Program-made: the position numbers and the translations under genes
IMG/VR virus record: IMGVR_UViG_2778261687_000004
Location: 1-14,113 of that record
Source of the DNA: a virus
Taxonomy: Duplodnaviria; Heunggongvirae; Uroviricota; Caudoviricetes
DNA: 14,113 bases
Strand: one strand, 5' to 3'
In this document: one piece after another, positions 1 to 14,113 of the stretch
Layout of the letters: each line of letters opens with the position of its first letter
How positions within the stretch are numbered: position 1 is the stretch's first letter
Notes under the pieces: model-generated
Seen by the model: the letters and a program-made list of their open reading frames with translations, nothing else
Told to the model about the DNA's origin: nothing
Databases searched by the model: none

Positions 1-174
1 ATGATTGAACAAATTAACATCGCTCTTGAGCAAAAAGGGTCCGGGAATTTCTCAGCCTGGGTCATTGAAGCCTGCCGCCGGAGACTGTGCTCAGAAAAAA
101 GAGTTTCTTCTGAAGCAAACAAAGAAAAGAGTGACATTACTGAATTGCTCAGAAAACAGGTCAGACCAGATTGA
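1..174 (+). CDS. Small hypothetical protein (57 codons, ATG at window position 1, TGA at 172-174); may be a complete small gene or the 3' end of a longer one (ynfO position)
   Basis: Open frame from position 1 to TGA 172-174 (MIEQINIALEQKGSGNFSAWVIEACRRRL...). Not in the ORF track because it starts at the window edge. Name by synteny only. Confidence 0.45.
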   Translation: MIEQINIALEQKGSGNFSAWVIEACRRRLCSEKRVSSEANKEKSDITELLRKQVRPD

Positions 175-216
175 AGCAATTTAGATAATCGTGCAGACTA
201 CGCCCCCTCATATCAC

Positions 217-642
217 ATGGAAGGTTTATCTATGGATCAGGTAGTCATTTTTAAACAAATATTTGATAAAGTTCGAAACGATTTAAACTATCAATGGTTT
301 TATTCTGAGCTAAAACGTCACAATGTCTCACATTACATTTACTATTTAGCCACAGAGAATGTTCATATTGTATTAAAAAATGATAATACAGTGTTATTAA
401 AGGGCCTAAAAAACATTGTGTCTGTCAAATTTTCAAAGGATAGGCATCTTATAGAAACGACCTCTAATAAGCTGAAATCCAGAGAGATCACATTTCAGGA
501 ATACAGAAGAAACCTTGCTAAAGCAGGAGTTTTTCGGTGGGTTACAAATATCCACGAACAAAAAAGATATTACTATACCTTTGATAATTCATTACTATTT
601 ACTGAAAGCATCCAGAAAACTACACAGATCTTACCACGCTAA
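217..642 (+). CDS. ydfO: DUF1398-family prophage protein (YdfO-like); alternative start ATG 232 gives 136 aa
   Basis: 141-aa ORF in the track; sequence and position upstream of gnsB match my memory of the YdfO/YbcV family. Confidence 0.7.
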
Positions 643-650
643 ACCATAAC

Positions 651-679
651 GTCCGGCTTCTCTCACTCCTGAGCCGGAC
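651..679 (+). terminator. Possible stem-loop downstream of ydfO (8-bp stem GTCCGGCT/AGCCGGAC, 13-nt loop), weak U-tract
   Basis: Inverted repeat 651-658 / 672-679 seen directly; the following T-tract is poor, so terminator function is uncertain. Confidence 0.3.
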
Positions 680-793
680 TGCATTGGTTTAATAAAAACC
701 ATCAACAATTGTGATTTAGATATTCGGAACCATTCAAATATAACAAAACCCCGTAAAAACGAGGTTTATGGATAAATTTTATTATTGAATACA

Positions 794-968
794 TCAGATT
801 AAATTAATCTTGACATCATAGCTTTCAAGACCCGTCATTTTTTCCCGTGCGGTAAACTGAATACTGGTAACTTCTTTCCCGGTCTTTTTCTTAAGTTCAA
901 TAATTTTTTTTTGTTATATATTCAGAAATATCTGCTTCTGCTTTTGTTTTTAAGTTTTCAATATTCAT
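794..968 (-). pseudogene. gnsB: GnsA/GnsB-family gene disrupted by a 1-nt frameshift in a T9 homopolymer (plus 904-912)
   Basis: Minus strand ATG at 968 with RBS AGAGGAAA. Translation MNIENLKTKAEADISEYITKK then the frame breaks in the A9 run (TAT TGA). With A8 it reads ...KKIIELKKKTGKEVTSIQFTAREKMTGLESYDVKINLI* (57 aa, GnsB-like). Span is 175 nt, not a multiple of 3. Confidence 0.6.
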
Positions 969-1139
969 CATTTCCTCTTTTAGTCTGTTATGACTTTCCA
1001 GTTACACAGTAAGTCGATTATATGGTGCAAACGTGTAAAAGATAAGATGAAACATCGCAATAATCAACATACGATAGTCTAAATTTTACACAAACAGACA
1101 AAGAGAATTTTCCTGAATTATCAATGCAATAGCATCAAA

Positions 1140-1373
1140 TCAACTCAAGAGCCTTATTGCTGCTTCCAGAATTTCTTCTGAAGTAACATGTCGATCCGCG
1201 GCTACATAAATGACTTTATGATCTCCGGTCAGAGATGGAAACCCTGCGGCCATTACAGTAAGGTGTGTTTTTTCGCCATTTGGATATTCACGCATGATGG
1301 TGTTAACTCCAGTCATCGCTGGCACTACCACTGCTGGTTCAGAGTTAAAAAAAACTATGATTTTTTTCATGAT
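1140..1373 (-). CDS. Hypothetical 77-aa protein at the ynfN position between cspI and gnsB
   Basis: ORF-track entry 1140..1412 begins with TTG; the first ATG is at 1373 (MKKIIVFFNSEPAVVVPAMTGV...). No strong SD. Identity not recognised. Confidence 0.45.
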   Translation of the reverse strand: MMKKIIVFFNSEPAVVVPAMTGVNTIMREYPNGEKTHLTVMAAGFPSLTGDHKVIYVAADRHVTSEEILEAAIRLLS

Positions 1374-1414
1374 GTTACCGTAGTATGTGAGTATCCATCG
1401 AATAGACACCAAGC

Positions 1415-1434
1415 AAAAAAGCTCCCGAAGGAGC
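1415..1434 (-). terminator. Intrinsic terminator for the minus-strand cspI transcript
   Basis: Hairpin GCTCC-CGAA-GGAGC (1421-1434) preceded on plus by A6 (1415-1420), so the minus-strand RNA has the stem followed by U6. Confidence 0.55.
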
Positions 1435-1641
1435 CTTCATTTTCACTTTTTTAAATCCAACGACAGACGGCTGGCATTTAAGTATTGTGAAATATTATCA
1501 AATGTAATCATCATTGATTTACAAAAGATACATTTTGCCCCGAAAGGATTCATGTCAGAAACATCAAAAGATGATGTTCTATACTGGGAACCATGACAAC
1601 ACGGGCATCTAAAGTGAATATGGTTTGTAATATTGTCTACC

Positions 1642-1854
1642 TCAAAGCGCCACTACATGAACAGCGGCAGGACCTTTAGGTCCGTTCTCAATACCAAATT
1701 CAACTTCCTGATTCTCAGTTAATGTTTTGAAATCGTTGCTCTGAATTGCTGAGAAATGGACAAACACATCTTTGCTGCCATCTTTCGGCGTGATGAAACC
1801 AAAACCTTTTTCAGGGTTAAACCATTTCACTAAACCAGTCATTTTGTTAGACAT
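1642..1854 (-). CDS. cspI: Cold-shock protein, CspA family (70 aa)
   Basis: [38 protein letters not shown]... contains the canonical cold-shock domain RNP motifs (KGFGFI, VFVHF). Paralog assignment is by synteny next to the lysis cassette. Confidence 0.88.
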
Positions 1855-2216
1855 AATTATTACCTTTTGAAGAAATTAGCCCTTGGGCAGAATGGTCCGA
1901 AAAAAAATATCAGAGAGAAAAACCAACAAGGAAATCTCAAGAGGTACAAATAATAAAATTATAACAATGACTGCTTCAGATAAATTTGTAACAAACCAGA
2001 ACACCATTAACGCATGATTAACCACCCATAGCAAGGATTACTTTTGTAAAGAAAAACACAGCAATGAAAGAATAGCTTTATTTATTAATAAAACGTGTCA
2101 TTCTGATTAAGACCTTTTATCTTACCCTTAAGATTTCAGGAATTTTGGCTCATGGAAGAGTCCTTTTTATTTAAATTTTACATTCCGCGATGTAAATGTT
2201 CCGATTTAATATTACC

Positions 2217-3239
<1,023 letters not shown>

Positions 3240-3243
<4 letters not shown>

Positions 3244-3551
3244 AGATATTTATGATGAGGACGCTCGTGCTTATTGGCAGGATTTTCAATCTTAAAGGAG
3301 TACTGATGCTGCAGATAAGACTCAACTTTTTCTGACAATTTTTCTGCTACTTCCAGGAAGACTTGCCGGACGCTCCTTCTGGCTGCTGCCTCATAAAACT
3401 CCAGCGCAGCTCCTTCAACACGGTCCATGGCGACATCCAGGTCAAAAATTTCACCGTCAAAGCGTTCTTTGTCCTGTAAGGCTACAGTTACCGTAACTTT
3501 ATTCTCAAAATTACGGACTCCTTTCACAACCAGTTCATAGTCTTGAGTCAT
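3240..3551 (-). CDS. ydfR: DUF1327-family prophage protein (YdfR-like), translationally coupled to the endolysin
   Basis: 103-aa ORF with RBS GAGAGGAG upstream of ATG 3551; its stop overlaps the endolysin start (ATGA 3240-3243). Confidence 0.75.
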
Positions 3552-3555
3552 TGGA

Positions 3556-3771
3556 TTACTCTCCTCTCGCAGCCTTACGCCTGTCTTCTTTAATCTTGAA
3601 ATAAAGATTTGTCAGATACGTCAGCAGGCCAAAAACCAGGCTACCCAGCACACCGATTGCAGCCCACTGTGACGGAGTTACTTTATCGAGTAACTGCAAT
3701 GCCCAGAAACCAGCATTACCCGCCGATGTGCCATAGGCAACACCTGTTGTTAACTTATCCATTGATTTCAT
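3556..3771 (-). CDS. essQ: Class II holin / pinholin (S21-like, 71 aa) with dual-start motif MKSM
   Basis: [71 protein letters not shown] has two TM segments and a charged C-terminus. The longer track ORF (to 3846) has a non-holin-like N-terminal extension. Confidence 0.8.
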
Positions 3772-3990
3772 ATCCTCACCCCGATGTACACGGATGGTGC
3801 AATATGTTTGAAAAGATCGGAGTCTACGGGGTAGTTTTGACAGCACACGTTGTTCTCAACGGCGCTAAAAAAACATACACATTAAAAATGTGGGTAATTA
3901 TTTTGAAAGAAAGTCATATATAAAATAATAATACGAGAAATGTTTTCATATTTAGTGTACTGTATACGGCCATTTATACAGGAAAAGCCT

Positions 3991-4161
3991 ATGTCAGAAC
4001 GTAAAAACTCAAAATCACGCCGTAATTATCTCGTTAAATGTTCCTGCCCAAACTGCACCCAAGAGTCAGAACACAGTTTTTCAAGAGTACAAAAAGGTGC
4101 CCTTTTGATCTGCCCTCATTGCAACAAAGTATTCCAGACAAATCTTAAAGCTGTAGCCTGA
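3991..4161 (+). CDS. ynfU: Small zinc-ribbon protein (56 aa, CxxC...CxxC), YnfU-like
   Basis: ATG 3991 with RBS AGGAAA 5 nt upstream; MSERKNSKSRRNYLVKCSCPNCTQESEHSFSRVQKGALLICPHCNKVFQTNLKAVA carries two CxxC pairs. Symbol from memory of K-12 small-protein annotation, not verified. Confidence 0.6.
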   Translation: MSERKNSKSRRNYLVKCSCPNCTQESEHSFSRVQKGALLICPHCNKVFQTNLKAVA

Positions 4162-4220
4162 TTGATTTTATTAGTAACAAGTATTTTTTATATTTTAATA
4201 ATATATTTAAAGCAGATAAT

Positions 4221-4243
4221 AAAAAACCCGCCTGAGCGGGTTT
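4221..4243. terminator. Bidirectional intrinsic terminator between convergent ynfU-like (+) and cspB (-)
   Basis: A6-CCCGC-CTGA-GCGGG-TTT; on the minus strand the stem is followed by U6. Confidence 0.6.
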
Positions 4244-4524
4244 GAGATTGTGGTGCTTTTTGTGGGAGTCATCCACTTACGCACTTTGTTTTGCCATGCC
4301 AGCAGTTAGCTTCTGCTGTAAAACTATTCATGCAGCAAACCTGCACTTCACCACAATGGTTAGCATACTTTTCCTGATTAAGATTTTGCCAAATATGCTA
4401 GCCATTGTTTCATGTATTGGACCTCCTTACTTTTTATTAAAGAGATCCAATATTCACTACTCTGTCCGTATCTCTACTCAGGCATCAGCCTTCTTCGTTA
4501 TCGTATACAGACGAGCGATGAATT

Positions 4525-4740
4525 TTAATCAGTAATGATGACATTTGCTGCTGCAGGACCTTTAGCACCACTCTCTATAGAGAAGGTAACCTTTTGACCT
4601 TCAAATAAGGTTCGATAATTATCATTCTGAATCGCAGAAAAATGCACAAACACATCTTTACTACCATCAACAGGAGAAATAAAGCCGAAACCTTTATCAG
4701 CGTTAAACCATTTTACTAAACCAGTCATTTTATTTGACAT
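4525..4740 (-). CDS. cspB: Cold-shock protein, CspA family (71 aa)
   Basis: [67 protein letters not shown]...; RBS AAGGAA; long 5' leader. Confidence 0.88.
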
Positions 4741-4757
4741 TCTACATTCCTTAACTT

Positions 4758-4769
4758 GAGCCTTTCGGC
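4758..4769 (-). promoter_or_regulatory. csp 5'-UTR 'upstream box'-like element (GCCGAAAGGCTC) just 5' of the cspB SD
   Basis: Minus strand reads ATGCCGAAAGGCTCAAGTTAAGGAATGTAGA-ATG. This is one mismatch from the cspA-family upstream-box consensus GCCGAAAGGCACA as I recall it. Confidence 0.5.
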
Positions 4770-5040
4770 ATAAATGGTTTGCATAACAGAAACGACTTCG
4801 TACTTAATTGGAGAGACTCAAAGAAGGAATAAGTGAATAACACCTGAAATGAGAACTGCTTTAGTAAACTACTTCGTATATCGTCTGTTCTTCAAACCGA
4901 CGCAATCATTAACGCATAGTTGAACATATGAAGCAATGTTTATTTTAGACATCCAGCCATCTTCAACCCCATCAAAAAACTATAGCTTTCTTCAGGAACG
5001 TGTGTATAGTGCGCCAAGTTATCAGTATTAAGGAATTTTT

Positions 5041-5253
5041 TTGTCCCGTAAAATGACAGGAATTGTCAAAACCTTTGACGGCAAAAGCGGCAAGGGTCTT
5101 ATCACCCCATCCGATGGTCGTATCGATGTCCAGCTTCATGTTTCAGCGCTCAATCTCCGCGATGCAGAAGAAATTACCACCGGATTACGCGTGGAATTTT
5201 GCCGGATAAATGGTCTGCGTGGCCCTTCAGCTGCCAATGTTTACCTTTCATGA
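5041..5253 (+). CDS. cspF: Cold-shock-domain protein of the CspF/CspH subgroup (70 aa), apparent TTG start
   Basis: [70 protein letters not shown]; SD AAGGAA 6 nt upstream of TTG 5041; next ATG is codon 5 (5053). Divergent from cspB. Confidence 0.8.
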
Positions 5254-5307
5254 GCTATATTAAAGCTTTAATTTCAGGCCCCATCGGATCACACATGGAG
5301 AGTTTTT

Positions 5308-5397
5308 ATGAATAACCCCGTCTGTCTTGATGACTGGTTGATTGGCTTTAAAAGCTTATGCTGTACTTTGGCCGTAATAGCTCTGCTAATAATATAA
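5308..5397 (+). CDS. Candidate 29-aa hydrophobic small protein downstream of cspF
   Basis: ATG 5308 preceded by GGAGAG 5 nt upstream; [29 protein letters not shown], with a C-terminal hydrophobic segment. Below the ORF-track length cutoff. Confidence 0.35.
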
Positions 5398-5548
5398 TAA
5401 GCAGACTCATTGTGTTTAGGGACATTGTACTGGAAGAAAACATTTTAAACATCAGGCAAATAACCAAGTCACCAGCTAAATAATAAGTTAACAGACATGA
5501 GTCCCGGGATGAGATTCAACATTACCATTGCCCCATTTAAAGCACAAA

Positions 5549-5569
5549 ACCCGCTCATCAGCGGGTTTT
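5549..5569. terminator. Bidirectional intrinsic terminator between cspF-side (+) and quuQ (-) transcription
   Basis: AAAA-ACCCGCT-CATC-AGCGGGT-TTT: 7-bp GC-rich stem, 4-nt loop, A-tract before and T-tract after. Confidence 0.6.
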
Positions 5570-5674
5570 CTACTTTTTCTTAACGTCGGGTATACAAAGC
5601 CCATCGTTGAAAAAATTTTATCCATATTTTTTGAAAAATGCAAACATCATGTCGCCATCTTCAGCAAAAATCAT

Positions 5675-6427
5675 TTATCTCGTCACCTTCCTCAATTGCG
5701 CTTCCGCGTATGCTTCTTCCTGCCAGCACTTTGTTACCAGTTTACCAATGACGTCCGCATACCCCTTATACCACTGATAATCGGTCAGGTCTGGTACCAG
5801 CTTCTGGACATGACGTCGTGCCAACGTGGTCGGTAAACGACTAAACCGGTTTCCATTACAACGCCCACAAATCTTATATACCGGTACGCCATGAAACCGG
5901 GTTCTTTTTTCATCCAGAACAATCCCTTTACCCTTACACCCTCTGCACGCTGTGCTGGCTTCGCCCTTACCATGGCAATGCTGACATAGTTCCTTCACCC
6001 ATTATTCCTTGATTACAGATTCCCCGCGTCTGTAGTGTTTCACCACTTCGCGCAATACATTATAAAATCCCGTACCTGAACAATGCTCACAGCGAGCCTT
6101 ACTTGCCGCAGACCTGGAGTAATCAGCAAAGGCAAAACTCACGAGGTAAGGAATAATCTGTAACCGGATTTCTTCACTCAATTTGTTCAATGTCGGGTTA
6201 TCCAGTGCCATCGCGTAATTTAGCAGGCCTTCAATCGCAAACTGAGGGTCCTGAACACCAACTTTTGCCAGAAATAAGGCCAACCCAAGTGGTGCTTTCG
6301 ACTGCACCATCCCCTGCGCTGCCATTACATCCGTAATTGTTAAACAACCGGTGCCTGTCGCTGGAGCGTCATCGCTCAATTTTGGAGATTTTGGGGAGTA
6401 ATATTTTGGTAAGGCTTCAAGGTTCAT
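5675..6427 (-). pseudogene. quuQ: Lambdoid late-gene antiterminator Q homolog interrupted by an in-frame TAA (plus 6002-6004)
   Basis: Track ORFs 6002..6457 (N-terminal part) and 5675..5998 (C-terminal part with zinc-finger CxxC...CxxC: CQHCHGKGEASTACRGCKGKG...CGRCNG) are in the same frame, separated only by TAA-TGG. ATG 6427 has RBS GGAGAA; counting the stop as a codon gives 250 codons. Confidence 0.75.
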
Positions 6428-6440
6428 GCTCGTTCTCCAC

Positions 6441-7325
6441 TTACGCCAGTACGCCAATTGCCAGCGCGCGATCGATAAAACGAAATATCAGCTCCAGTTG
6501 AGAGCCATACTTATCTTCAAATGCCACTGTATCCGTATGCAGCTCGTTGTGATGCTTTCTGCACAAAGGCAACACAAAGAGATCATGTGCTTTTGTTCCC
6601 ATTCCGCCCTGCCCGTGACCAATCAGATGATGCGGATCGTCGGCTGGCATACCGCAGCAAGCACACGGCTGTGTCTTAACCCAACGTGTGTATTTCTCCT
6701 TAACCCAGCGGCGACGTTTAGGCAGCTTCATGAAAGATTCCGGAGACTCTGGATCAACGGTGATGCTTACCACCGTCTTTTCCTGTGGTGATTTTTGTTG
6801 CTGGTGGGCGTAAGGCAACGGTGCAAGATTTTTTGTGCGTTGTTTCAATATGCTGGTGGCGGTCTGCTCTCCCGGTACGATGTCGCTTTCGCGGTACACC
6901 GAGCAGATTTTTTCCGCTGGTAATCCCAGCGAACGACGCGATACAGCCTCAGGTAGTGCATCCACCACCTGATTGCAGACCGCCCACCAGGATAATTCAG
7001 CCAAAGATAATTCCCGCTCCTGCGTACCGCTTATTGCGTGACGGATGACGTCAATCACCCATGCTGTCAGATTTTGTTGAGCAAGCAGCTCCAGTGATTC
7101 CGATGTCTGGTCACGCAGTTGGTTGTCGCAGTGCCAGCACAACACCATTGCGCCGGTACCATAACGGTGAATGACTGTTTCAGTGTGATGGTAATCGCCA
7201 TTAGGCCACTGGCAGGATGTAACATGACGTAATAGCCAGTCGGACAATGCGCCAACCCGCGCCTGCGGTAAGAATGAATCAGCCATTCGGCCTGTTCTGC
7301 AGTGCATGGAGGGTGCTGGAACCAT
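6441..7325 (-). CDS. ydfU: DUF968-family prophage protein with C-terminal HNH/zinc-finger-like motif (YdfU-like); probably the 3' portion of a frameshifted gene
   Basis: 294-aa ORF; C-terminus CACCGMPADDPHHLIGHGQGGMGTKAHDLFVLPLCRKHHNELH. Its ATG is immediately preceded by an in-frame TGA and has no SD. Confidence 0.8.
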   Translation of the reverse strand: MVPAPSMHCRTGRMADSFLPQARVGALSDWLLRHVTSCQWPNGDYHHTETVIHRYGTGAMVLCWHCDNQLRDQTSESLELLAQQNLTAWVIDVIRHAISGTQERELSLAELSWWAVCNQVVDALPEAVSRRSLGLPAEKICSVYRESDIVPGEQTATSILKQRTKNLAPLPYAHQQQKSPQEKTVVSITVDPESPESFMKLPKRRRWVKEKYTRWVKTQPCACCGMPADDPHHLIGHGQGGMGTKAHDLFVLPLCRKHHNELHTDTVAFEDKYGSQLELIFRFIDRALAIGVLA

Positions 7326-7414
7326 TCAGACTTGAATGCGTGAGAATACCGCCCGTGCGTGCAGGCAAGAACGGGCGAATTATCAGAATTGTAATATTTT
7401 GCGTTGCGTGCCAT
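7067..7414 (-). CDS. ORF with good RBS that overlaps ydfU in another frame; likely the true 5' end of ydfU (frameshift near 7250-7260) or, less likely, a separate overlapping gene
   Basis: ATG 7414 preceded by CCGGAGAAAACCG. The first ~50 aa look protein-like (MARNAKYYNSDNSPVLACTHGRYSHAFKSEWFQHPPCTAEQAEWLIHSY...); the remainder is low-complexity (C/W/T-rich) while the ydfU frame becomes protein-like at the same point. Confidence 0.35.
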   Translation of the reverse strand: MARNAKYYNSDNSPVLACTHGRYSHAFKSEWFQHPPCTAEQAEWLIHSYRRRGLAHCPTGYYVMLHPASGLMAITITLKQSFTVMVPAQWCCAGTATTNCVTRHRNHWSCLLNKI

Positions 7415-7752
7415 CGGTTTTCTCCGGTGGCACGGTGTTACTCAGCGGGAGTTCAGCCCCGCGCAAGATTGTAGATGAGTTTATTCTCCTGAAAAAGCAG
7501 AAAAGCCAGCTTTTATTCCGATCTCTTTCAATGCCTGTAATGAAGTGACAAACTCACCTTCGCGCAAGATAAATCCGTCCGTGACCTGACCTGTCGATAA
7601 AGGAACGTAACACGTTTTATGCAACACCCGCATGCGGCAGAAAATTATTGCCGAACGTTTACCCCTGTCAACAAGCTTTACTTTCTGAGGCGCGCCAGCC
7701 CGCGAGGAAAACAATCTGAACATCAAACAATTAATGACACAAGAAATACGAT

Positions 7753-7779
7753 TAAAGATTTTTTTGTGCATGCCGATAG
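7753..7779 (+). promoter_or_regulatory. Sigma28 (FliA) class promoter for flxA
   Basis: TAAAGATT (7753-7760), 11-nt spacer, GCCGATAG (7772-7779), matching the sigma28 consensus TAAAGTTT-N11-GCCGATAA; lies 24 nt upstream of the flxA ATG. Confidence 0.65.
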
Positions 7780-7802
7780 TGCTTTTTTAAAAGGAGAAAT
7801 CT

Positions 7803-8135
7803 ATGTCTGTCACAATTCAGGGAAATACCTCAACCGTTATTTCAAACAACTCCGCCCCGGAAGGAACATCAGAAATAGCCAAAATCACAAGACAAATTCA
7901 GGTGCTGACTGAAAAGCTTGGGAAAATCTCATCGGAAGAGGGGATGACGACACAGCAGAAAAAAGAAATGGCTGCATTGGTACAGAAGCAAATTGAAAGC
8001 CTCTGGGCTCAACTGGAGCAGTTGTTAAGGCAGCAGGCAGAGAAAAAGAATGAAGACGCGACAGTTCAGCCTGATAAAAAAGAAGAGAAAAAAGACGATA
8101 CAAATACCGCTGGCACCATTGATATTTACGTCTAA
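7803..8135 (+). CDS. flxA: FliA-regulated prophage protein FlxA (110 aa)
   Basis: MSVTIQGNTSTVISNNSAPEGTSEIAKITRQIQVLTEKLGKISSEEG...; RBS AAGGAG; sigma28 promoter upstream. Recognised from memory of FlxA. Confidence 0.85.
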   Translation: MSVTIQGNTSTVISNNSAPEGTSEIAKITRQIQVLTEKLGKISSEEGMTTQQKKEMAALVQKQIESLWAQLEQLLRQQAEKKNEDATVQPDKKEEKKDDTNTAGTIDIYV

Positions 8136-8149
8136 GTGACAGCCGTATT

Positions 8150-8172
8150 GTGGCCCTCATCGGGCCACTTTT
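8150..8172 (+). terminator. Intrinsic terminator of flxA
   Basis: GTGGCCC-TCATC-GGGCCAC followed by TTTT, 15 nt after the flxA stop. Confidence 0.7.
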
Positions 8173-8571
8173 CGCCATCAGCCTTTTCTTTAAAGACATA
8201 TTATCTTTGTATCATTTCTGATAGTTAACATTACAAGATATAAGTAATGGACGCACTCCCAATTAGTCTATTTAAATCGCCACGAGTTTAACTGACAACC
8301 CATGATCAATTATGAATTGCAACTATTTCTGTAGTCACTTTTGTGGGGACAGTCCACAAAACTGCCAACTTCCGCTTCTTGCTCTTAGCGGACATTAGCA
8401 TAGGCTATTTACCATAACGCCTCATTACGCGCACCGCCCAGACTGACTCAGCGCGTTTCTGGCATATCCCCGGTAAAACAAGTAACAAACCACCCGAAAA
8501 TGAACACCAGAAACGCGACTTAAGAATCTACCCTATGAATGGATATGCACTCAACCGAATCGATCTTGGTT

Positions 8572-9885
8572 TCAATCTTTTTTATCGGGATCAGGCTTCT
8601 TTTTAGGTAACTTCGGGGGCTTAACTTGCTGATGACTTTGCGTTCGGCGCGTAAGCCAGGGATGGTCAGCTTTAGGTTTAACATAGTATTTTGAGCGTAA
8701 ATCAATACGGGCATTATCCACTCGTTCATGGACACTCTTTTCATCATCCAGTGGTATAGGCTCCGGGCCATCAACATACTTTTCCCAGCCCAGCGCTTTC
8801 CCGTCATACAGAACGTTAATTTCACCGTCAAAGTTCTCGCATACAGTAACAACCGAATGCCTAAGTCGATATCCCCGGCCCTCACTGCGTACCTGAAACG
8901 CACTGCTTTTGTACTGGAAAGTGAGATTTTTAGACAGAACGCGCTTCGCCTGTAGGCTGAAGATATAACCCAGTTCCTCTTCAGAATGGTGCACATCAAG
9001 ATGAGCATTATCAGTAGTACGAGGCGACGTAGCGAACCGGTTGTTATAGGCTTCAATAAAGGTCGGCAACCATGCATTTGCTGTTTCAATATCACTGATA
9101 TTCTGAAGCCGCATTTCTTTGACCAGCCTGTCCTGTAGTGTCTGATTGGCGCGCTCTACCCGCCCTTTTGCCTGCGGGCTGTTGGCATGGATTGGCTCGA
9201 TGCCCAGTGTCTTTATCGCACGAGTGAACTGGGTCAGCTCACCTTCCCGCTCTGGGTTATTTACCCTGAATATACTGTGTCTATCAGAGTAGAGAGCGAG
9301 CGGTACGCCATGATCATTAAGGTAACCCCGGAGGGTTTCCATGTAAGCCCGGGTTGTTTCAGCAGGCACAAAACGCAACGCCATCAACGCACTGGTGGCA
9401 TCATCAATGAAAACGATCAGTGTACATCTGGGGCCTCGATTTTCAAACCAGTCATGAGGTGAGCCATCAATCTGGATCAGTTCACCGTAAGATGGTCGTC
9501 GCATGCGGCGTTGATATATACGGGCAATTTTACGACGGCGTTCACGCCATAACCCCTCTTCTATCATCCACTTTCTGAGAGTTTCAACGGATAAAGATAA
9601 ACCGTGTATCTCGCGCAATTTTTCGCACGCAAACGTAGGTCCAAAATCAGCGTAACGGCCTTTGAGGAGTGAAATTACTGTTGCTCTGAATTCAGTAGAA
9701 AAGGAATTATTAGGACGCTTTCCACGTCGGTGGGAAACCAGACCAGAAGGCCCTTCATTTCTATACCGTTGCACCAGACGTTTAACCTGCCGAATAGAAA
9801 TGCCAATGCGTGCCGCAGCTTGTTCCTGAATAATCTGAAGTCGGTGGAGTTCCTTATGACTCATCGTAACAGTCTCTTTGATCAT
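8572..9885 (-). CDS. Transposase-like protein, N-terminal HTH plus DDE/rve integrase-core domain and C-terminal extension (437 aa); probably IS481-family-like, family not verified
   Basis: N-terminal HTH (GISIRQVKRLVQRYRNEGPSGLVSHRRGKRPNN); D residues in LIQIDGSPHDWF and VFIDDATS; HANSPQAKGRVERANQTLQDRL resembles the retroviral-integrase-type E motif. RBS TGGGGGAT upstream of ATG 9885. Confidence 0.8.
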   Translation of the reverse strand: MIKETVTMSHKELHRLQIIQEQAAARIGISIRQVKRLVQRYRNEGPSGLVSHRRGKRPNNSFSTEFRATVISLLKGRYADFGPTFACEKLREIHGLSLSVETLRKWMIEEGLWRERRRKIARIYQRRMRRPSYGELIQIDGSPHDWFENRGPRCTLIVFIDDATSALMALRFVPAETTRAYMETLRGYLNDHGVPLALYSDRHSIFRVNNPEREGELTQFTRAIKTLGIEPIHANSPQAKGRVERANQTLQDRLVKEMRLQNISDIETANAWLPTFIEAYNNRFATSPRTTDNAHLDVHHSEEELGYIFSLQAKRVLSKNLTFQYKSSAFQVRSEGRGYRLRHSVVTVCENFDGEINVLYDGKALGWEKYVDGPEPIPLDDEKSVHERVDNARIDLRSKYYVKPKADHPWLTRRTQSHQQVKPPKLPKKKPDPDKKD

Positions 9886-9973
9886 GAAAAATCCCCCAGA
9901 GAATTGTCTGGGGACATTTTAGAATGGTTCAAAGGGGACATTACAGCTTGGTGTTAACAATAGCCTGCTTCTC

Positions 9974-9989
9974 CGTGCCTTTCGGCACG
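9974..9989 (-). other. GNRA-tetraloop hairpin (CGTGCC-GAAA-GGCACG) resembling a csp 'upstream box', followed by SD-like GGAGAAG, with no nearby start codon
   Basis: Minus strand reads ACGTGCCGAAAGGCACGGAGAAGCAGGC; GCCGAAAGGCAC matches the cspA-family upstream-box consensus as I recall it. Confidence 0.4.
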
Positions 9990-10219
9990 TAAGAGGCTAA
10001 CCTACATGTGTCTAGCATGAAATTGGCCTCAGATTAATGTTAAGCGTCTTGCAGGACGCGTAATGTTAACTGGGGCTTTTCTCTATCTGCCGTTGGTGTC
10101 CATGCCCGAGGCAGATAGCCTCAAGCACCCGCAGTCATTCTACTTAACTAAGATTTCCCCGCAAACCGTTTTTGTCCAGCACAGTAAATATCCAACTAAA
10201 CCAATGGAGTTCGCTGTAT

Positions 10220-10399
10220 TTACCGCCAGTATTCAATGCACATGACCGCCATGAACACCCCTAAAAAAAGGGCATTTATATATCCAAATATTAATATCAA
10301 AACATCAACTTTTTCCATATACCTTGCTGTGAAGATGATGGGCATACATGATGCGAACAACCAGAACGCAACAAACAAAAACTGCAATGCGTTTTTCAT
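10220..10399 (-). CDS. Candidate small membrane protein (59 aa, two predicted TM helices)
   Basis: Strong SD AGGAGG 4 nt upstream of ATG 10399; MKNALQFLFVAFWLFASCMPIIFTARYMEKVDVLILIFGYINALFLGVFMAVMCIEYWR. The longer track ORF starts with GTG and lacks a usable SD. Confidence 0.5.
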   Translation of the reverse strand: MKNALQFLFVAFWLFASCMPIIFTARYMEKVDVLILIFGYINALFLGVFMAVMCIEYWR

Positions 10400-11016
10400 T
10401 ATTCCTCCTACAATCAATGTGCAATTACATTTAAACACACCTCAATTTGGCCGGACATATAAATATCTAAACCAGAAAAAATCACTTACATAGCGTTACA
10501 AACTCTTTAGTCTAAAGGTTCATCGTAAAACATTCCCCATACTTATCAGTCCGTTCCGCGCCAGGTAGCTCATTGCCTTATCTGGCAACCTGTAATCAGG
10601 TTTCCGCTTTTTCAGTTGGCTGGTCGTTTAACCGACATAGTTAATCCATTAATCTAGTTGCCGGATGTTGGTGGATTTTCGCGTTTTAGTTGTTCATAAA
10701 AGTGCACAGCTTTAACCAGTTCTTCTGATGTAACTGGGACTGGTGAGGCAGTGAATAAGGCCTGAATTTGATAGTTCGGCCTGTCGTTACAATCCTCTTT
10801 TTTCGGTACATATTTCCAGTCACCAGACCACTACTTCCCCTGAAAGTCCGTAACGCCTTTTTTCACGTAGCGATATCGCCATGCCACTGGTTTTGCTTGC
10901 CCCGCCGTTTCATGCCCTTCCTGATAATTAATCTCGCTCATTCATCGCCCCACTCATCACAATATGCTTCGACCGGAGTTTTTCCCGCTTCATAGTCATC
11001 ACGCTAGGATTCGACA

Positions 11017-11316
11017 TCAGCAGCACTTCCACCGCGTAGCCTCCATAATTGCAGGCACTAGCGCCGTGAACTTTTCACGCTTATCCCTGGTGTCGATAGC
11101 CTTCCAGCGTTCAAATATCTTCACTCGATTAACGCCAAGCGCTCGCTGATCAATCGCGCCACCTTCATATGTGACACGCTGAACATCGATGTTCGGGCGC
11201 TCTTTCAAAGCCCAGAATGCTTCAGTGATTAATATCGTCGCCTGCTCCTGTGTCATTCCTGGTCGACATATCCAGGCATCCAGAGCCTCACGAGCCTGTT
11301 CAGGAGTGATTTTCAT
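11017..11316 (-). CDS. Hypothetical 99-aa protein immediately downstream of dicC, overlapping it by 17 nt (ydfX position)
   Basis: ORF MKITPEQAREALDAWICRPGMTQEQATILITEAFWALKERPNIDVQRV...; the dicC stop (11300-11302) lies inside it in another frame. Weak SD. Confidence 0.5.
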   Translation of the reverse strand: MKITPEQAREALDAWICRPGMTQEQATILITEAFWALKERPNIDVQRVTYEGGAIDQRALGVNRVKIFERWKAIDTRDKREKFTALVPAIMEATRWKCC

Positions 11317-11530
11317 TGTTCAACCGCCCCGCCCGCTTCGTCTTACGATATTCATCATAAACTTTGGGATCATACTGAAGCTCCCCGCCAGATGCCTCCT
11401 GTAGACGCATCGCGCGACCTTCGGGAACTAAATCCCCTTTCCAGCTATAAAGCGAAGCCAAACGAATACCTGCTGCTTGTGCAAGTTTTGTTTTTGAACC
11501 GAAATACAAAAGAGCGTCAGTTTTAAGCAT
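11300..11530 (-). CDS. dicC: Cro-like repressor of the division-inhibition operon, DicC (76 aa)
   Basis: MLKTDALLYFGSKTKLAQAAGIRLASLYSWKGDL... has an HTH; divergent from dicA across an operator-containing intergenic region; RBS AAGGTG. Confidence 0.85.
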   Translation of the reverse strand: MLKTDALLYFGSKTKLAQAAGIRLASLYSWKGDLVPEGRAMRLQEASGGELQYDPKVYDEYRKTKRAGRLNNENHS

Positions 11531-11544
11531 TTAAAACACCTTTA

Positions 11545-11564
11545 TTGTTAGTCATAACTAACAA
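11545..11564. promoter_or_regulatory. Perfect 20-bp palindromic operator candidate in the dicC-dicA divergent promoter region
   Basis: TTGTTAGT-CATA-ACTAACAA (11545-11564); a second, imperfect related site around 11597-11616 (TTAGCATTAGCTAACTA). Confidence 0.6.
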
Positions 11565-11613
11565 GATAGATGTTAACAAAAACATAGTCAATACGATTTA
11601 GCATTAGCTAACT

Positions 11614-12021
11614 ATGGAAACAAAAAATTTAACTATCGGCGAACGCATCAGGTATCGTCGGAAAAACCTCAAACACACCCAAAGGTCTCTTGCTAAAGCC
11701 CTGAAAATCTCCCATGTGTCTGTATCACAATGGGAACGGGGTGATAGTGAACCTACAGGGAAGAACCTTTTTGCCCTCAGCAAAGTATTGCAATGCTCAC
11801 CAACATGGATTCTATTTGGCGATGAAGACAAGCAACCAACACCACCTGTTGAGAAGCCAGTTGCCTTATCCCCCAAAGAACTAGAGCTCCTTGAGCTGTT
11901 TAATGCACTGCCAGAATCAGAACAGGATACCCAGCTCGCCGAAATGCGAGCTCGAGTAAAAAACTTCAATAAACTCTTTGAAGAATTACTAAAAGCCCGT
12001 CAGCGGACAAATAAAAGATAA
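11614..12021 (+). CDS. dicA: XRE-family HTH repressor DicA (135 aa), cI-like
   Basis: METKNLTIGERIRYRRKNLKHTQRSLAKALKISHVSVSQWERGDSEPTGKNLFALSKVL...: classic lambda-Cro/C1-type HTH. Confidence 0.88.
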   Translation: METKNLTIGERIRYRRKNLKHTQRSLAKALKISHVSVSQWERGDSEPTGKNLFALSKVLQCSPTWILFGDEDKQPTPPVEKPVALSPKELELLELFNALPESEQDTQLAEMRARVKNFNKLFEELLKARQRTNKR

Positions 12022-12187
12022 CATCATCAATGAGTTATCTTTTACCACATCAATTATGTTAGCTATAGCATACAAAATCACTTGACCGATATGTTAGTCA
12101 TGGCTAATCTTGTTTGCATCAACACACCGCACGGTGTTCTCAGCAAACAGTTCCGCTACCCCAGCGTTAAGGGGAAATGAGGTCAGC

Positions 12188-12343
12188 ATGGATACTATCG
12201 ATCTTGGCAACAACGAATCTCTGGTGTACGGCGTGTTTCCAAACCAGGACGGCACGTTCACCGCAATGACGTATACCAAAAGCAAAACGTTTAAAACCGA
12301 AAATGGTGCCCGTCGCTGGCTGGAAAGAAACTCAGGTGAGTGA
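12188..12343 (+). CDS. ydfA: Small prophage protein YdfA (51 aa)
   Basis: ATG 12188 with SD GAGG; MDTIDLGNNESLVYGVFPNQDGTFTAMTYTKSKTFKTENGARRWLERNSGE; first gene of the dicB operon. Confidence 0.75.
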   Translation: MDTIDLGNNESLVYGVFPNQDGTFTAMTYTKSKTFKTENGARRWLERNSGE

Positions 12344-12344
12344 T

Positions 12345-12473
12345 ATGGATTTCGACACAATCATGGAAAAGGCTTACGAAGAATACTTCGAAGGCCTTGC
12401 CGAAGGCGAAGAAGCTCTCAGCTTCAGTGAGTTTAAACAGGCGCTTTCCAGTTCGGCAAAATCTAACGGCTGA
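12345..12473 (+). CDS. ydfB: Small acidic prophage protein YdfB (42 aa)
   Basis: ATG 12345 starts 2 nt after the ydfA stop, with SD AGGTGAG; MDFDTIMEKAYEEYFEGLAEGEEALSFSEFKQALSSSAKSNG*. Below the track cutoff. Confidence 0.65.
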   Translation: MDFDTIMEKAYEEYFEGLAEGEEALSFSEFKQALSSSAKSNG

Positions 12474-12502
12474 TAAGCGAAACAGCACCGCGAGGAATCA
12501 GT

Positions 12503-12721
12503 ATGCAGAAACGAGAACCCGTCATCATCGCGCCAGACTATACCGATGATGAACTTTATGAGTGGATGCGCCAGAAAATTAATGCAGCGCAGGATCTGAA
12601 ATGGGCTAATGAAGCCAGGGCTAAGCAGGCTGAAAATCTGTCCGCTCTGGAGCAGGATATCACCAATCTGGAAAAAGCAGCGGCATTAAGCATTGCCAGA
12701 ATGATTACATACCCGCGTTAG
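12503..12721 (+). CDS. ydfC: Prophage protein YdfC (72 aa)
   Basis: SD GAGGAA 7 nt upstream; MQKREPVIIAPDYTDDELYEWMRQKINAAQDLKWANEARAK... Confidence 0.78.
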   Translation: MQKREPVIIAPDYTDDELYEWMRQKINAAQDLKWANEARAKQAENLSALEQDITNLEKAAALSIARMITYPR

Positions 12722-13061
12722 TAGCTAATCAACAAAGCTAAGGTTAGTAATTAAGGAGTTCTCCACGGGTGAGGTGGAGTGCGTGCGCCGGACACGGGTG
12801 CGCATCCGGAACTGACAGTTTACTGAAAGGATATTTCCCTGAAAAGTCAGACCATAACGCGAAAGCGCACGGCGAGGTAGCTGGTTCATAGATAGCCTGT
12901 CGTTAAATTTTCGTCGACCGTGCGCTTCCGGTTGTGGCAACCCGCGAAATGGCGCGGCGGTAAGTATGGCGGGGTTATTCCTTCCCCGTTGAGGACACCG
13001 GGTTGTCAGGTTGACCATACGCTTAAGTGACAACCCCGCTGCAACGCCCTCTGTTATCAAT

Positions 13062-13114
13062 TTTCTGGTGACGTTTGGCGGTATCAGTTTTACTCCGTGA
13101 CTGCTCTGCCGCCC
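13062..13114 (+). ncRNA. dicF: DicF small regulatory RNA (about 53 nt; ftsZ-targeting), processed from the dicB operon transcript
   Basis: TTTCTGGTGACGTTTGGCGGTATCAGTTTTACTCCGTGACTGCTCTGCCGCCC followed by TTTTT (13115-13119), between ydfC and dicB; recognised from memory of the DicF sequence; preceded by a GC-rich structured region. Confidence 0.8.
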
Positions 13115-13288
13115 TTTTTAAAGTGAATTTTGTGATGTGGTGAATGCGGCTGAGCGCACGCGGAACAGTTAAAACCAAAAACAGTGTTATGGGTGGATTC
13201 TCTGTATCCGGCGTTAATTGTTAACTGGTTAACGTCACCTGGAGGCACCAGGCACTGCATCACAAAATTCATTGTTGAGGACGCGATA

Positions 13289-13477
13289 ATGAAAACGTTA
13301 TTACCAAACGTTAATACGTCTGAAGGTTGTTTTGAAATTGGTGTCACTATCAGTAACCCAGTATTTACTGAAGATGCCATTAACAAGAGAAAACAAGAAC
13401 GGGAGCTATTAAATAAAATATGCATTGTTTCAATGCTGGCTCGTTTACGTCTGATGCCAAAAGGATGTGCACAATGA
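13289..13477 (+). CDS. dicB: Cell-division inhibitor DicB (62 aa)
   Basis: SD GAGGA 7 nt upstream of ATG 13289; MKTLLPNVNTSEGCFEIGVTISNPVFTEDAINKRKQERELLNKICIVSMLARLRLMPKGCAQ. Confidence 0.85.
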   Translation: MKTLLPNVNTSEGCFEIGVTISNPVFTEDAINKRKQERELLNKICIVSMLARLRLMPKGCAQ

Positions 13478-13665
13478 ATTCAGCATTTGTGCTTGTTCTG
13501 ACAGTTTTTCTTGTTTCCGGAGAGCCAGTTGATATTGCAGTCAGTGTTCACAGGACAATGCAGGAGTGTATGACTGCAGCAACCGAACAGAAAATTCCCG
13601 GTAACTGTTACCCGGTCGATAAAGTTATTCACCAGGATAATATCGAAATCCCGGCAGGTCTTTAA
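13474..13665 (+). CDS. ydfD: YdfD (63 aa), small membrane protein reported as a lysis-inducing toxin; start overlaps dicB stop (ATGA)
   Basis: MNSAFVLVLTVFLVSGEPVDIAVSVHRTMQECMTAATEQKIPGNCYPVDKVIHQDNIEIPAGL; N-terminal TM helix. Confidence 0.8.
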   Translation: MNSAFVLVLTVFLVSGEPVDIAVSVHRTMQECMTAATEQKIPGNCYPVDKVIHQDNIEIPAGL

Positions 13666-13757
13666 AACAGTTCCGTAATAAATATCCGGTTTCATTCTTA
13701 TATGCCAGCAATGGCAGGGATTTGTTCATCCTTAAATCTGTCATGAGGTTAAAACAA

Positions 13758-14113
13758 ATGAGTAAAGTCTTTATTTGCGCCGCTATTCCTGACGAACTGG
13801 CAACAAGGGAAGAAGGCGCTGTGGCTGTAGCCACAGCCATTGAAGCTGGCGACGAACGCCGTGCTCGAGCAAAATTTCACTGGCAATTCCTGGAACATTA
13901 TCCGGCTGCTCAGGACTGCGCTTATAAATTTATTGTCTGCGAGGATAAACCTGGCATACCCCGCCCTGCCCTCGATTCATGGGATGCTGAATATATGCAG
14001 GAAAACCGCTGGGATGAGGAGTCTGCTTCTTTTGTCCCGGTTGAGACTGAATCCGATCCGATGAACGTCACTTTTGACAAGCTGGCCCCTGAAGTACAGA
14101 ACGCTGTCATGGT
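13758..14113 (+). CDS. ydfE: YdfE-like prophage protein, 5' portion (runs off the window end)
   Basis: ATG 13758 with SD GAGG; MSKVFICAAIPDELATREEGAVAVATAIEAGDERRARAKFHWQFLEHYPAAQDCAYKF...; no stop before the window end, so absent from the ORF track. Confidence 0.7.
   Translation, partial: MSKVFICAAIPDELATREEGAVAVATAIEAGDERRARAKFHWQFLEHYPAAQDCAYKFIVCEDKPGIPRPALDSWDAEYMQENRWDEESASFVPVETESDPMNVTFDKLAPEVQNAVM

Follow-up and report, generated by a model that had tools for sequence, protein, structure and literature searches.

A frameshifted gnsB allele with an A9 tract in a decaying Qin-type cryptic prophage of Escherichia coli, probably a product of replication slippage

The analysed stretch of DNA, hereafter the window, is 14,113 nucleotides long and constitutes the whole of contig NLGV01000060.1 of the draft E. 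coli assembly GCA_002226155.1. The source names of its protein cluster likewise give E. coli, which spoke against a Shigella origin that had also been considered. The window holds a Qin-type cryptic prophage whose gene content comprises ynfO (partial), ydfO, gnsB, ynfN, ynfR, ynfQ, cspI, rzpQ/rzoQ, rrrQ, ydfR, the essD/essQ holin, cspB, cspF, ydfT, ydfU, rem, flxA, an ISNCY transposase, dicC, dicA, ydfABC, and dicB. At its left end, the synteny ynfO-ydfO-gnsB-ynfN-ynfR-ynfQ-cspI-rzpQ is conserved. Specifically, cspI-ynfQ-ynfR-ynfN (1140..1854, minus strand) forms an upstream, co-oriented syntenic block that closes with gnsB. The features of the region are listed in Table 1.

Table 1. Features of the gnsB locus and its surroundings in the window.
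Feature	Position	Strand	Basis or comment
gnsB, predicted pseudogene	794..968	-	Coordinates match those of 'gnsB frameshifted' in the PGAP annotation of loci L001-L004
A9 homopolymer, site of the +1 insertion; the consensus A8 encodes Thr-Lys-Lys-Ile	904..912	-	Sequence and allele census
Unrepaired truncated ORF, MNIENLKTKAEADISEYITKKNY, with premature TGA	897..968	-	Matches PF08178 positions 1-21 only
Out-of-frame remnant, GnsB residues 22-57, IIELKKKTGKEVTSIQFTAREKMTGLESYDVKINLI followed by a stop; sole usable internal start Met44	794..903	-	
Shine-Dalgarno-like GAGG, intact	974..977	-	Read from the sequence
Intrinsic-terminator-like hairpin and T tract, downstream of the gnsB stop	746..767	-	
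ynfN, intact	1140-1370	-	Annotation transferred from L001/L005
ynfR, intact	1375-1440	-	Annotation transferred from L001/L005
ynfQ/ymcF-like, intact	1443-1631	-	Annotation transferred from L001/L005; Pfam YmcF-like match
cspI, intact	1642-1854	-	Annotation transferred from L001/L005; Pfam CSD match
Second private homopolymer indel, A6 for A7 (T6 for T7 on the plus strand)	2436..2441	-	Frameshifts rzpQ and the embedded rzoQ

The gnsB orthologue extends from the ATG at 968-966 to the original TGA at 796-794. Its length, 175 nt, is not a multiple of three, as an earlier note on this DNA had pointed out for the span 794-968. The T9 run at 904-912 of the plus strand corresponds to A9 on the coding minus strand, and our reading of the letters agreed with the earlier one here as well. 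From ATG 968, frame 1 reads MNIENLKTKAEADISEYITKKNY before a stop: 21 codons of GnsB followed by N, Y, and the stop. These 21 codons, previously described as GnsB-like, are those of K-12 GnsB. The stop had been placed inside the A9 run; it is actually the TGA at 897-899, shortly past the end of the run, and the unrepaired ORF comprises 23 codons, not 21. The next frame continues as ...KKIIELKKKTGKEVTSIQFTAREKMTGLESYDVKINLI and ends at the TGA at 794-796. The coding strand read from 1020 to 780 is AGAGGAAATGATGAATATT...

The ORF listing gives the unrepaired ORF as 897..971. The Shine-Dalgarno-like GAGG lies 5 nt before ATG 968, a spacing that suits this codon and not ATG 971. An alternative start that would rescue gnsB was considered and rejected, as the downstream frame has no ATG, GTG, or TTG ahead of Met44, from which the product would be a 14-aa peptide. 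The proviso that the intact gene might start elsewhere was thereby answered.

Removal of one A from the run yielded, as had been predicted, a 57-aa protein ending at TGA 794-796, whose sequence matched that of E. coli K-12 MG1655 GnsB at 100% identity. The central proposal of the earlier note, a gnsB orthologue disrupted by a +1 homopolymer indel, is thus borne out by the reading frames and by the repaired protein. Against the Pfam family PF08178 (GnsAB_toxin; profile of 54 positions, gathering score of 27 bits), the repaired ORF scored 120.3 bits over positions 1-54 of 54, while the unrepaired 23-aa stub scored 37.3 bits over positions 1-21 only. The repaired protein also aligned with the GnsA structures 4xo1 and 4xo2 across residues 1-56. 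With respect to membership of the GnsA/GnsB family, a full-length profile match was obtained with the repaired ORF alone; in place of an uninterrupted ORF of approximately 57 codons, the locus has a stop after 23 codons; and Qin-type synteny downstream of cspI-ynfQ-ynfR-ynfN was present, based on the annotation of colinear loci and on our own Pfam matches. Judged by its sequence, the locus is a member of the GnsA/GnsB family by descent, as a predicted pseudogene, and its match to GnsB is far above chance.

The RefSeq family name for GnsB is 'addiction module toxin'. According to papers that cite Sugai et al. (2001), overexpression of gnsA or gnsB raised unsaturated fatty acids and suppressed fabA6(Ts) and a secG null mutation. 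A cspG-ymcF-ymcE-gnsA order is also on record, parallel to cspI-ynfQ-ynfR-ynfN-gnsB.

The closest reference is gnsB of K-12 (ydfY, b1550; Qin prophage, PF08178), which occupies the same locus in the same synteny, ydfO-gnsB-ynfN-ynfR-ynfQ-cspI. The two alleles are identical in nucleotide sequence save for one extra A in the window. However, the K-12 gene is intact, whereas the ORF of the window is broken after codon 21, leaving a coding capacity of only the 23-aa stub. A second K-12 gene provides a further comparison. In MG1655, ynfN is frameshifted by an indel in an A8 tract belonging to this cluster of small genes and is flagged accordingly by PGAP. That case concerns another gene and the opposite direction (A8 to A7, -1), and ynfN is intact in the window; nevertheless, it demonstrates that A8-tract indels do arise in lineages at the gnsB cluster.

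The alleles at the A8 tract were surveyed using a 401-bp query (window 700-1100), which matched approximately 1,487 complete E. coli genomes at an identity of at least 99%. Run lengths were counted by scanning for a pattern with N{0,5} and by searching with synthetic T7 sequences; a 30-nt megablast query was set aside, since low-complexity filtering would have hidden the run. An exact A9 (T9) was present in four of these genomes (FORC 064, O22:H8 154, WS4437A-1, and N196), and an exact A7 in 36, identified with the synthetic T7 query. Across the 401 bp, T9 versus T8 was the sole difference between the window and hundreds of genomes. Among 117 IMG/VR loci scanned for any run length, there were 108 A8, eight A7, and one A9. 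The metagenome contigs (n = 54) comprised 53 with A8 and one with A7, and A8 was found in all three of the GTDB representatives matched. Thus, the comparison with related strains that the earlier note had called for established A8 as the intact norm, accounting for roughly 97% of alleles, with roughly 3% of database copies off by one base, mostly -1; the A9 of the window is a +1 allele.

In all four A9 genomes, PGAP annotates gnsB as frameshifted, at the same coordinates as the pseudogene predicted here, and all four are identical to the window across the 401-bp query. They differ from it in being other strains with other prophage backgrounds: none has the deletions of the window, and the flanks in N196 are just 96.8% identical. 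These different backgrounds indicate independent events or errors. Some caution applies to individual records. The only A9 among the IMG/VR loci, L104, has four +1 homopolymer insertions within 2.5 kb and is probably a sequencing error, so database A9 alleles are not all trustworthy. Similarly, O22:H8 strain 154 carries another homopolymer frameshift close by, in ynfR.

In the complete genomes, A7 was nine times commoner than A9 (36 versus 4), a deletion bias that may be biological or may stem from under-calling in long reads. It was shared at matching coordinates by similarly named strains (CX08/CX12, MLI108K1/K2, and SW07163/11/19) and occurred in strain ER1709 too. The A7 loci L119, L124, and L139 were mutually close, but they were equally close to A8 loci in a nearest-neighbour comparison of the ±2.5-kb flanks, where diversity is low. 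One record labelled as a Veillonella parvula MAG (L196, JAGZPX010000007.1) contained the exact E. coli gnsB sequence and is probably a binning contaminant.

Two other A8 tracts of the cluster also varied in length. In 123 loci, 16 events were counted in the ynfN tract (1347-1354) and 23 in the tract upstream of cspI (1900-1907), versus about 12 in the gnsB tract. The neighbouring tracts being equally or more variable, the gnsB tract is not special. Variants of these two tracts were seen in loci L011, L030, L036, L039, and others. Some variants are fixed in lineages, the -1 in ynfN of the MG1655 record being an example.

To place the gnsB allele in context, the window was compared with a typical Qin prophage locus (L010) for indels, substitutions, and deletions. 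The comparison revealed the +1 in gnsB, a -1 in the T7 run of rzpQ, four private substitutions, and three deletions. The private changes (rzpQ -1, 2630 T>A, YdfT E142*, 5824, and 6501) were absent from all other loci that covered them, which numbered 35 to 130 per site out of 188 scanned. The rzpQ gene lies at 2216-2713 on the minus strand, with rzoQ embedded at approximately 2267-2538. Its indel joins RzpQ(1-92) to the last 56 residues of the RzoQ frame, giving a 148-aa product with Pfam matches to both DUF2514 and RzoQ, and also truncates the o-spanin RzoQ after ...VPKQK. This single indel is predicted to cost both spanin genes. Its T6 run occurred in none of the approximately 130 other fetched loci that span 2436-2441. 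Of the substitutions, 6004 C>A introduces the YdfT nonsense codon into a Q-like antiterminator (ydfT/quuQ, minus strand, 5675-6427), splitting it into ORFs of 141 and 107 aa; 2630 T>A changes RzpQ K28 to N and breaks a T8 run of other genomes; and the remaining two, 5824 and 6501, are synonymous. In the left 5.5 kb, all three lineage-private point changes sit in homopolymer tracts.

The deletions remove approximately 350 bp at 7254-7260, comprising the N-terminal part of ydfU and an adjoining small ORF; approximately 1.4 kb at 7581-7586, with loss of hokD, relE, relB, and part of ydfV and creation of a Rem-fusion ORF; and approximately 2.5 kb at 11037-11047, between the ISNCY region and ydaT/dicC. 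At each junction, the flanking BLAST segments have 6-11 bp in common, an overlap suggestive of microhomology. Because of these three deletions, none of the complete E. coli genomes in the collection was colinear with the window. Nothing was on record for the 294-aa ydfU-fusion ORF; records did exist for a 281-aa call and for two Rem-fusion ORFs, of 80 aa and 96 aa.

The same combination of defects was found in other deposits. Contig AASJMH020000066.1 of GCA_012386995.2, which is 13,901 bp long and whose ends differ from those of the window, matches window 23-13923 with 100% identity and carries the A9 in gnsB, the A6 in rzpQ, the ydfT nonsense mutation, and the three deletions. A Logan assembly contig, SRR9914100_375 (4,154 bp), is 100% identical to window 576-4729, including both homopolymer alleles, and SRR9914100_135 has the ydfT stop too. 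A contig of SRR13358462 has two of the three deletion junctions in common with the window. Literature searches yielded no relevant paper on these assemblies and sequencing runs or on the assembly of the window. Thus, the allele was reproduced in GCA_012386995.2 and in Logan SRR9914100, whose read sets, to judge from the differing accessions and contig ends, may well be independent. As expected of an authentic pseudogene, it is separated from intact orthologues by a single-base indel in a mononucleotide run.

The earlier note had left sequencing error and real mutation side by side. These data favour the latter, and the A9 in gnsB is probably a genuine replication-slippage mutation. Under the competing account, the genome would truly be A8 with an intact gnsB, the extra base being a homopolymer miscall in the consensus. 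Such indels are a classic class of error, A8 is found in approximately 97% of comparable sequences, and two homopolymer indels in 14 kb, in gnsB and rzpQ, are also what a homopolymer-prone platform would be expected to produce; error-prone assemblies do exist, as in L104 and strain 154. However, the A9 and the rzpQ A6 recur together in a second NCBI assembly, whose contig ends differ, and in the de Bruijn assembly that Logan provides for SRR9914100. That A9 recurs with the other private defects in separate deposits makes random sequencing error unlikely, since random errors would not co-recur only in samples that share the nonsense substitution (and, in the two NCBI contigs, the three deletions). 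A systematic platform error would appear widely, whereas database records of the frameshifted RzpQ product come from this lineage alone. Finally, the equally long or longer tracts at 1347 and 1900 keep their consensus length in the window, which argues against a generally homopolymer-noisy assembly; the window is a contig of a fragmented draft assembly and no obvious long-read product. That the true run might be T8 was the other proviso of the earlier note, and none of this lineage's data sets has T8. A miscall is therefore unlikely, and the genuine A9 mutation is the reading retained below.

A genuine A9 could still permit some expression. Baranov et al. (2005; PMC1088944) described 'pseudo pseudogenes', in which frameshift mutations turn a non-slippery 8A into a slippage-prone 9A, with an example from E. 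coli, and reported that selection against coding runs is evident from nine nucleotides in a large share of bacterial genomes. The gnsB allele resembles this class in that a frameshift has lengthened 8A to 9A inside an E. coli coding sequence. By this account, slippage of RNA polymerase on 9A (-1 or +2), or a ribosomal +1 or -2 shift, would yield some full-length GnsB, and the gene would be down rather than off. Frame arithmetic is compatible with it: loss of 1 nt from the mRNA, or gain of 2 nt, restores the GnsB frame, and the Shine-Dalgarno sequence, start codon, and terminator are all intact. Likewise, the tract reaches the length of at least nine A/T at which a 1-nt RNA change restores the ORF (A9; -1 nt), the threshold being that of PMC1088944 and slippage itself being predicted only. 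The rescue considered here differs from the published cases in being putative and in requiring a deletion-type slip on sense-strand poly(A), at which E. coli RNA polymerase is poor. Indeed, Wons et al. (2018; PMC6260861) found slippage by this polymerase to be low and to require more than seven adenines, and on the poly(A) runs that they tested they detected no rescue of the deletion type. Slippage rescue on 9A is accordingly unlikely to be efficient. Further, a conserved two-ORF layout of the kind expected of a frameshifting or slippage gene was not found, approximately 97% of alleles being a single ORF with A8, and the early stop would leave the mRNA open to polarity and decay. Overall, we consider residual expression by these routes quite unlikely. 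Programmed ribosomal frameshifting was rejected, as the A_AAA_AAA heptamer favours -1, which leads into the third frame, and GnsB needs +1 or -2.

Two further proposals assign a role to the variation in tract length. It is very unlikely that slippage on A9 returns a minor share of transcripts to the GnsB frame such that the A7/A8/A9 alleles, with approximately 3% of E. coli genomes off the norm, act as a low-frequency dial of gnsB expression. It is extremely improbable that the tract is a contingency switch, toggling gnsB between ON (A8) and OFF (A7 or A9) at high frequency as an adaptive control of a toxin-like small protein. Such a switch would accord with the variation in tract length on several haplotype backgrounds among the complete genomes, with the non-A8 alleles in 9 of the 117 IMG/VR loci, and with the A7 in 1 of the 54 metagenome contigs. 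Nevertheless, classical contingency tracts are longer than 8-9 nt, beside which this tract is short; the ynfN and cspI-upstream tracts vary equally or more; the data sets of this lineage are unanimous for A9; and part of the variation in the databases is probably error. Heterogeneity clearly above that of comparable tracts, the mark of a phase-variable locus, was not seen among close relatives or relative to the neighbouring A8 tracts.

Homopolymer tracts gain and lose bases by strand slippage in replication. On this basis, strand slippage on A8·T8 that added one base pair would be the most economical mechanism for the genuine A9 mutation. In the proposed sequence of events, replication slippage would lengthen the A8 tract of gnsB, which covers codons Thr19-Lys20-Lys21-Ile22, to A9 as a +1 insertion. 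Ribosomes initiating at ATG 968 would then exit the GnsB frame past Lys21 and terminate two codons on. The product would be a 23-residue stub without the C-terminal 36 of the 57 residues of GnsB, a protein whose GnsAB domain profile has 54 positions. Because this stub lacks 36 residues and no alternative start rescues the rest, gnsB is predicted to be a loss-of-function pseudogene here. The prophage around the mutation, cryptic and of Qin type, is itself decaying in this E. coli lineage. The loss may have come without a fitness cost, given that gnsB is a non-essential prophage gene known from overexpression phenotypes only. It also fits a prophage in which the lysis genes, the antiterminator, and two toxin-antitoxin modules are broken in this lineage.

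The event is of a known kind and affects a known gene, and RefSeq genomes with the identical allele already list gnsB as a frameshifted pseudogene. In annotation, the locus is best treated as a gnsB pseudogene whose frameshift is authentic, and neither silently 'corrected' nor called as a 23-aa gene. It provides one well-documented case of cryptic-prophage decay through homopolymer slippage, in which a single lineage has lost gnsB, both Qin spanins, the Q antiterminator, and the hokD/relBE modules. More generally, the A8 tracts of the cspI-gnsB cluster are length-variable in the databases, where real mutations are mixed with assembly errors, and pangenome presence/absence calls are consequently fragile for these tiny genes. 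If GnsB is a toxin or a modulator of membrane lipids, strains of this lineage would be natural knock-outs; if slippage on the A9 does yield some full-length protein, a toxin-like small protein would have been lowered in them, not lost.
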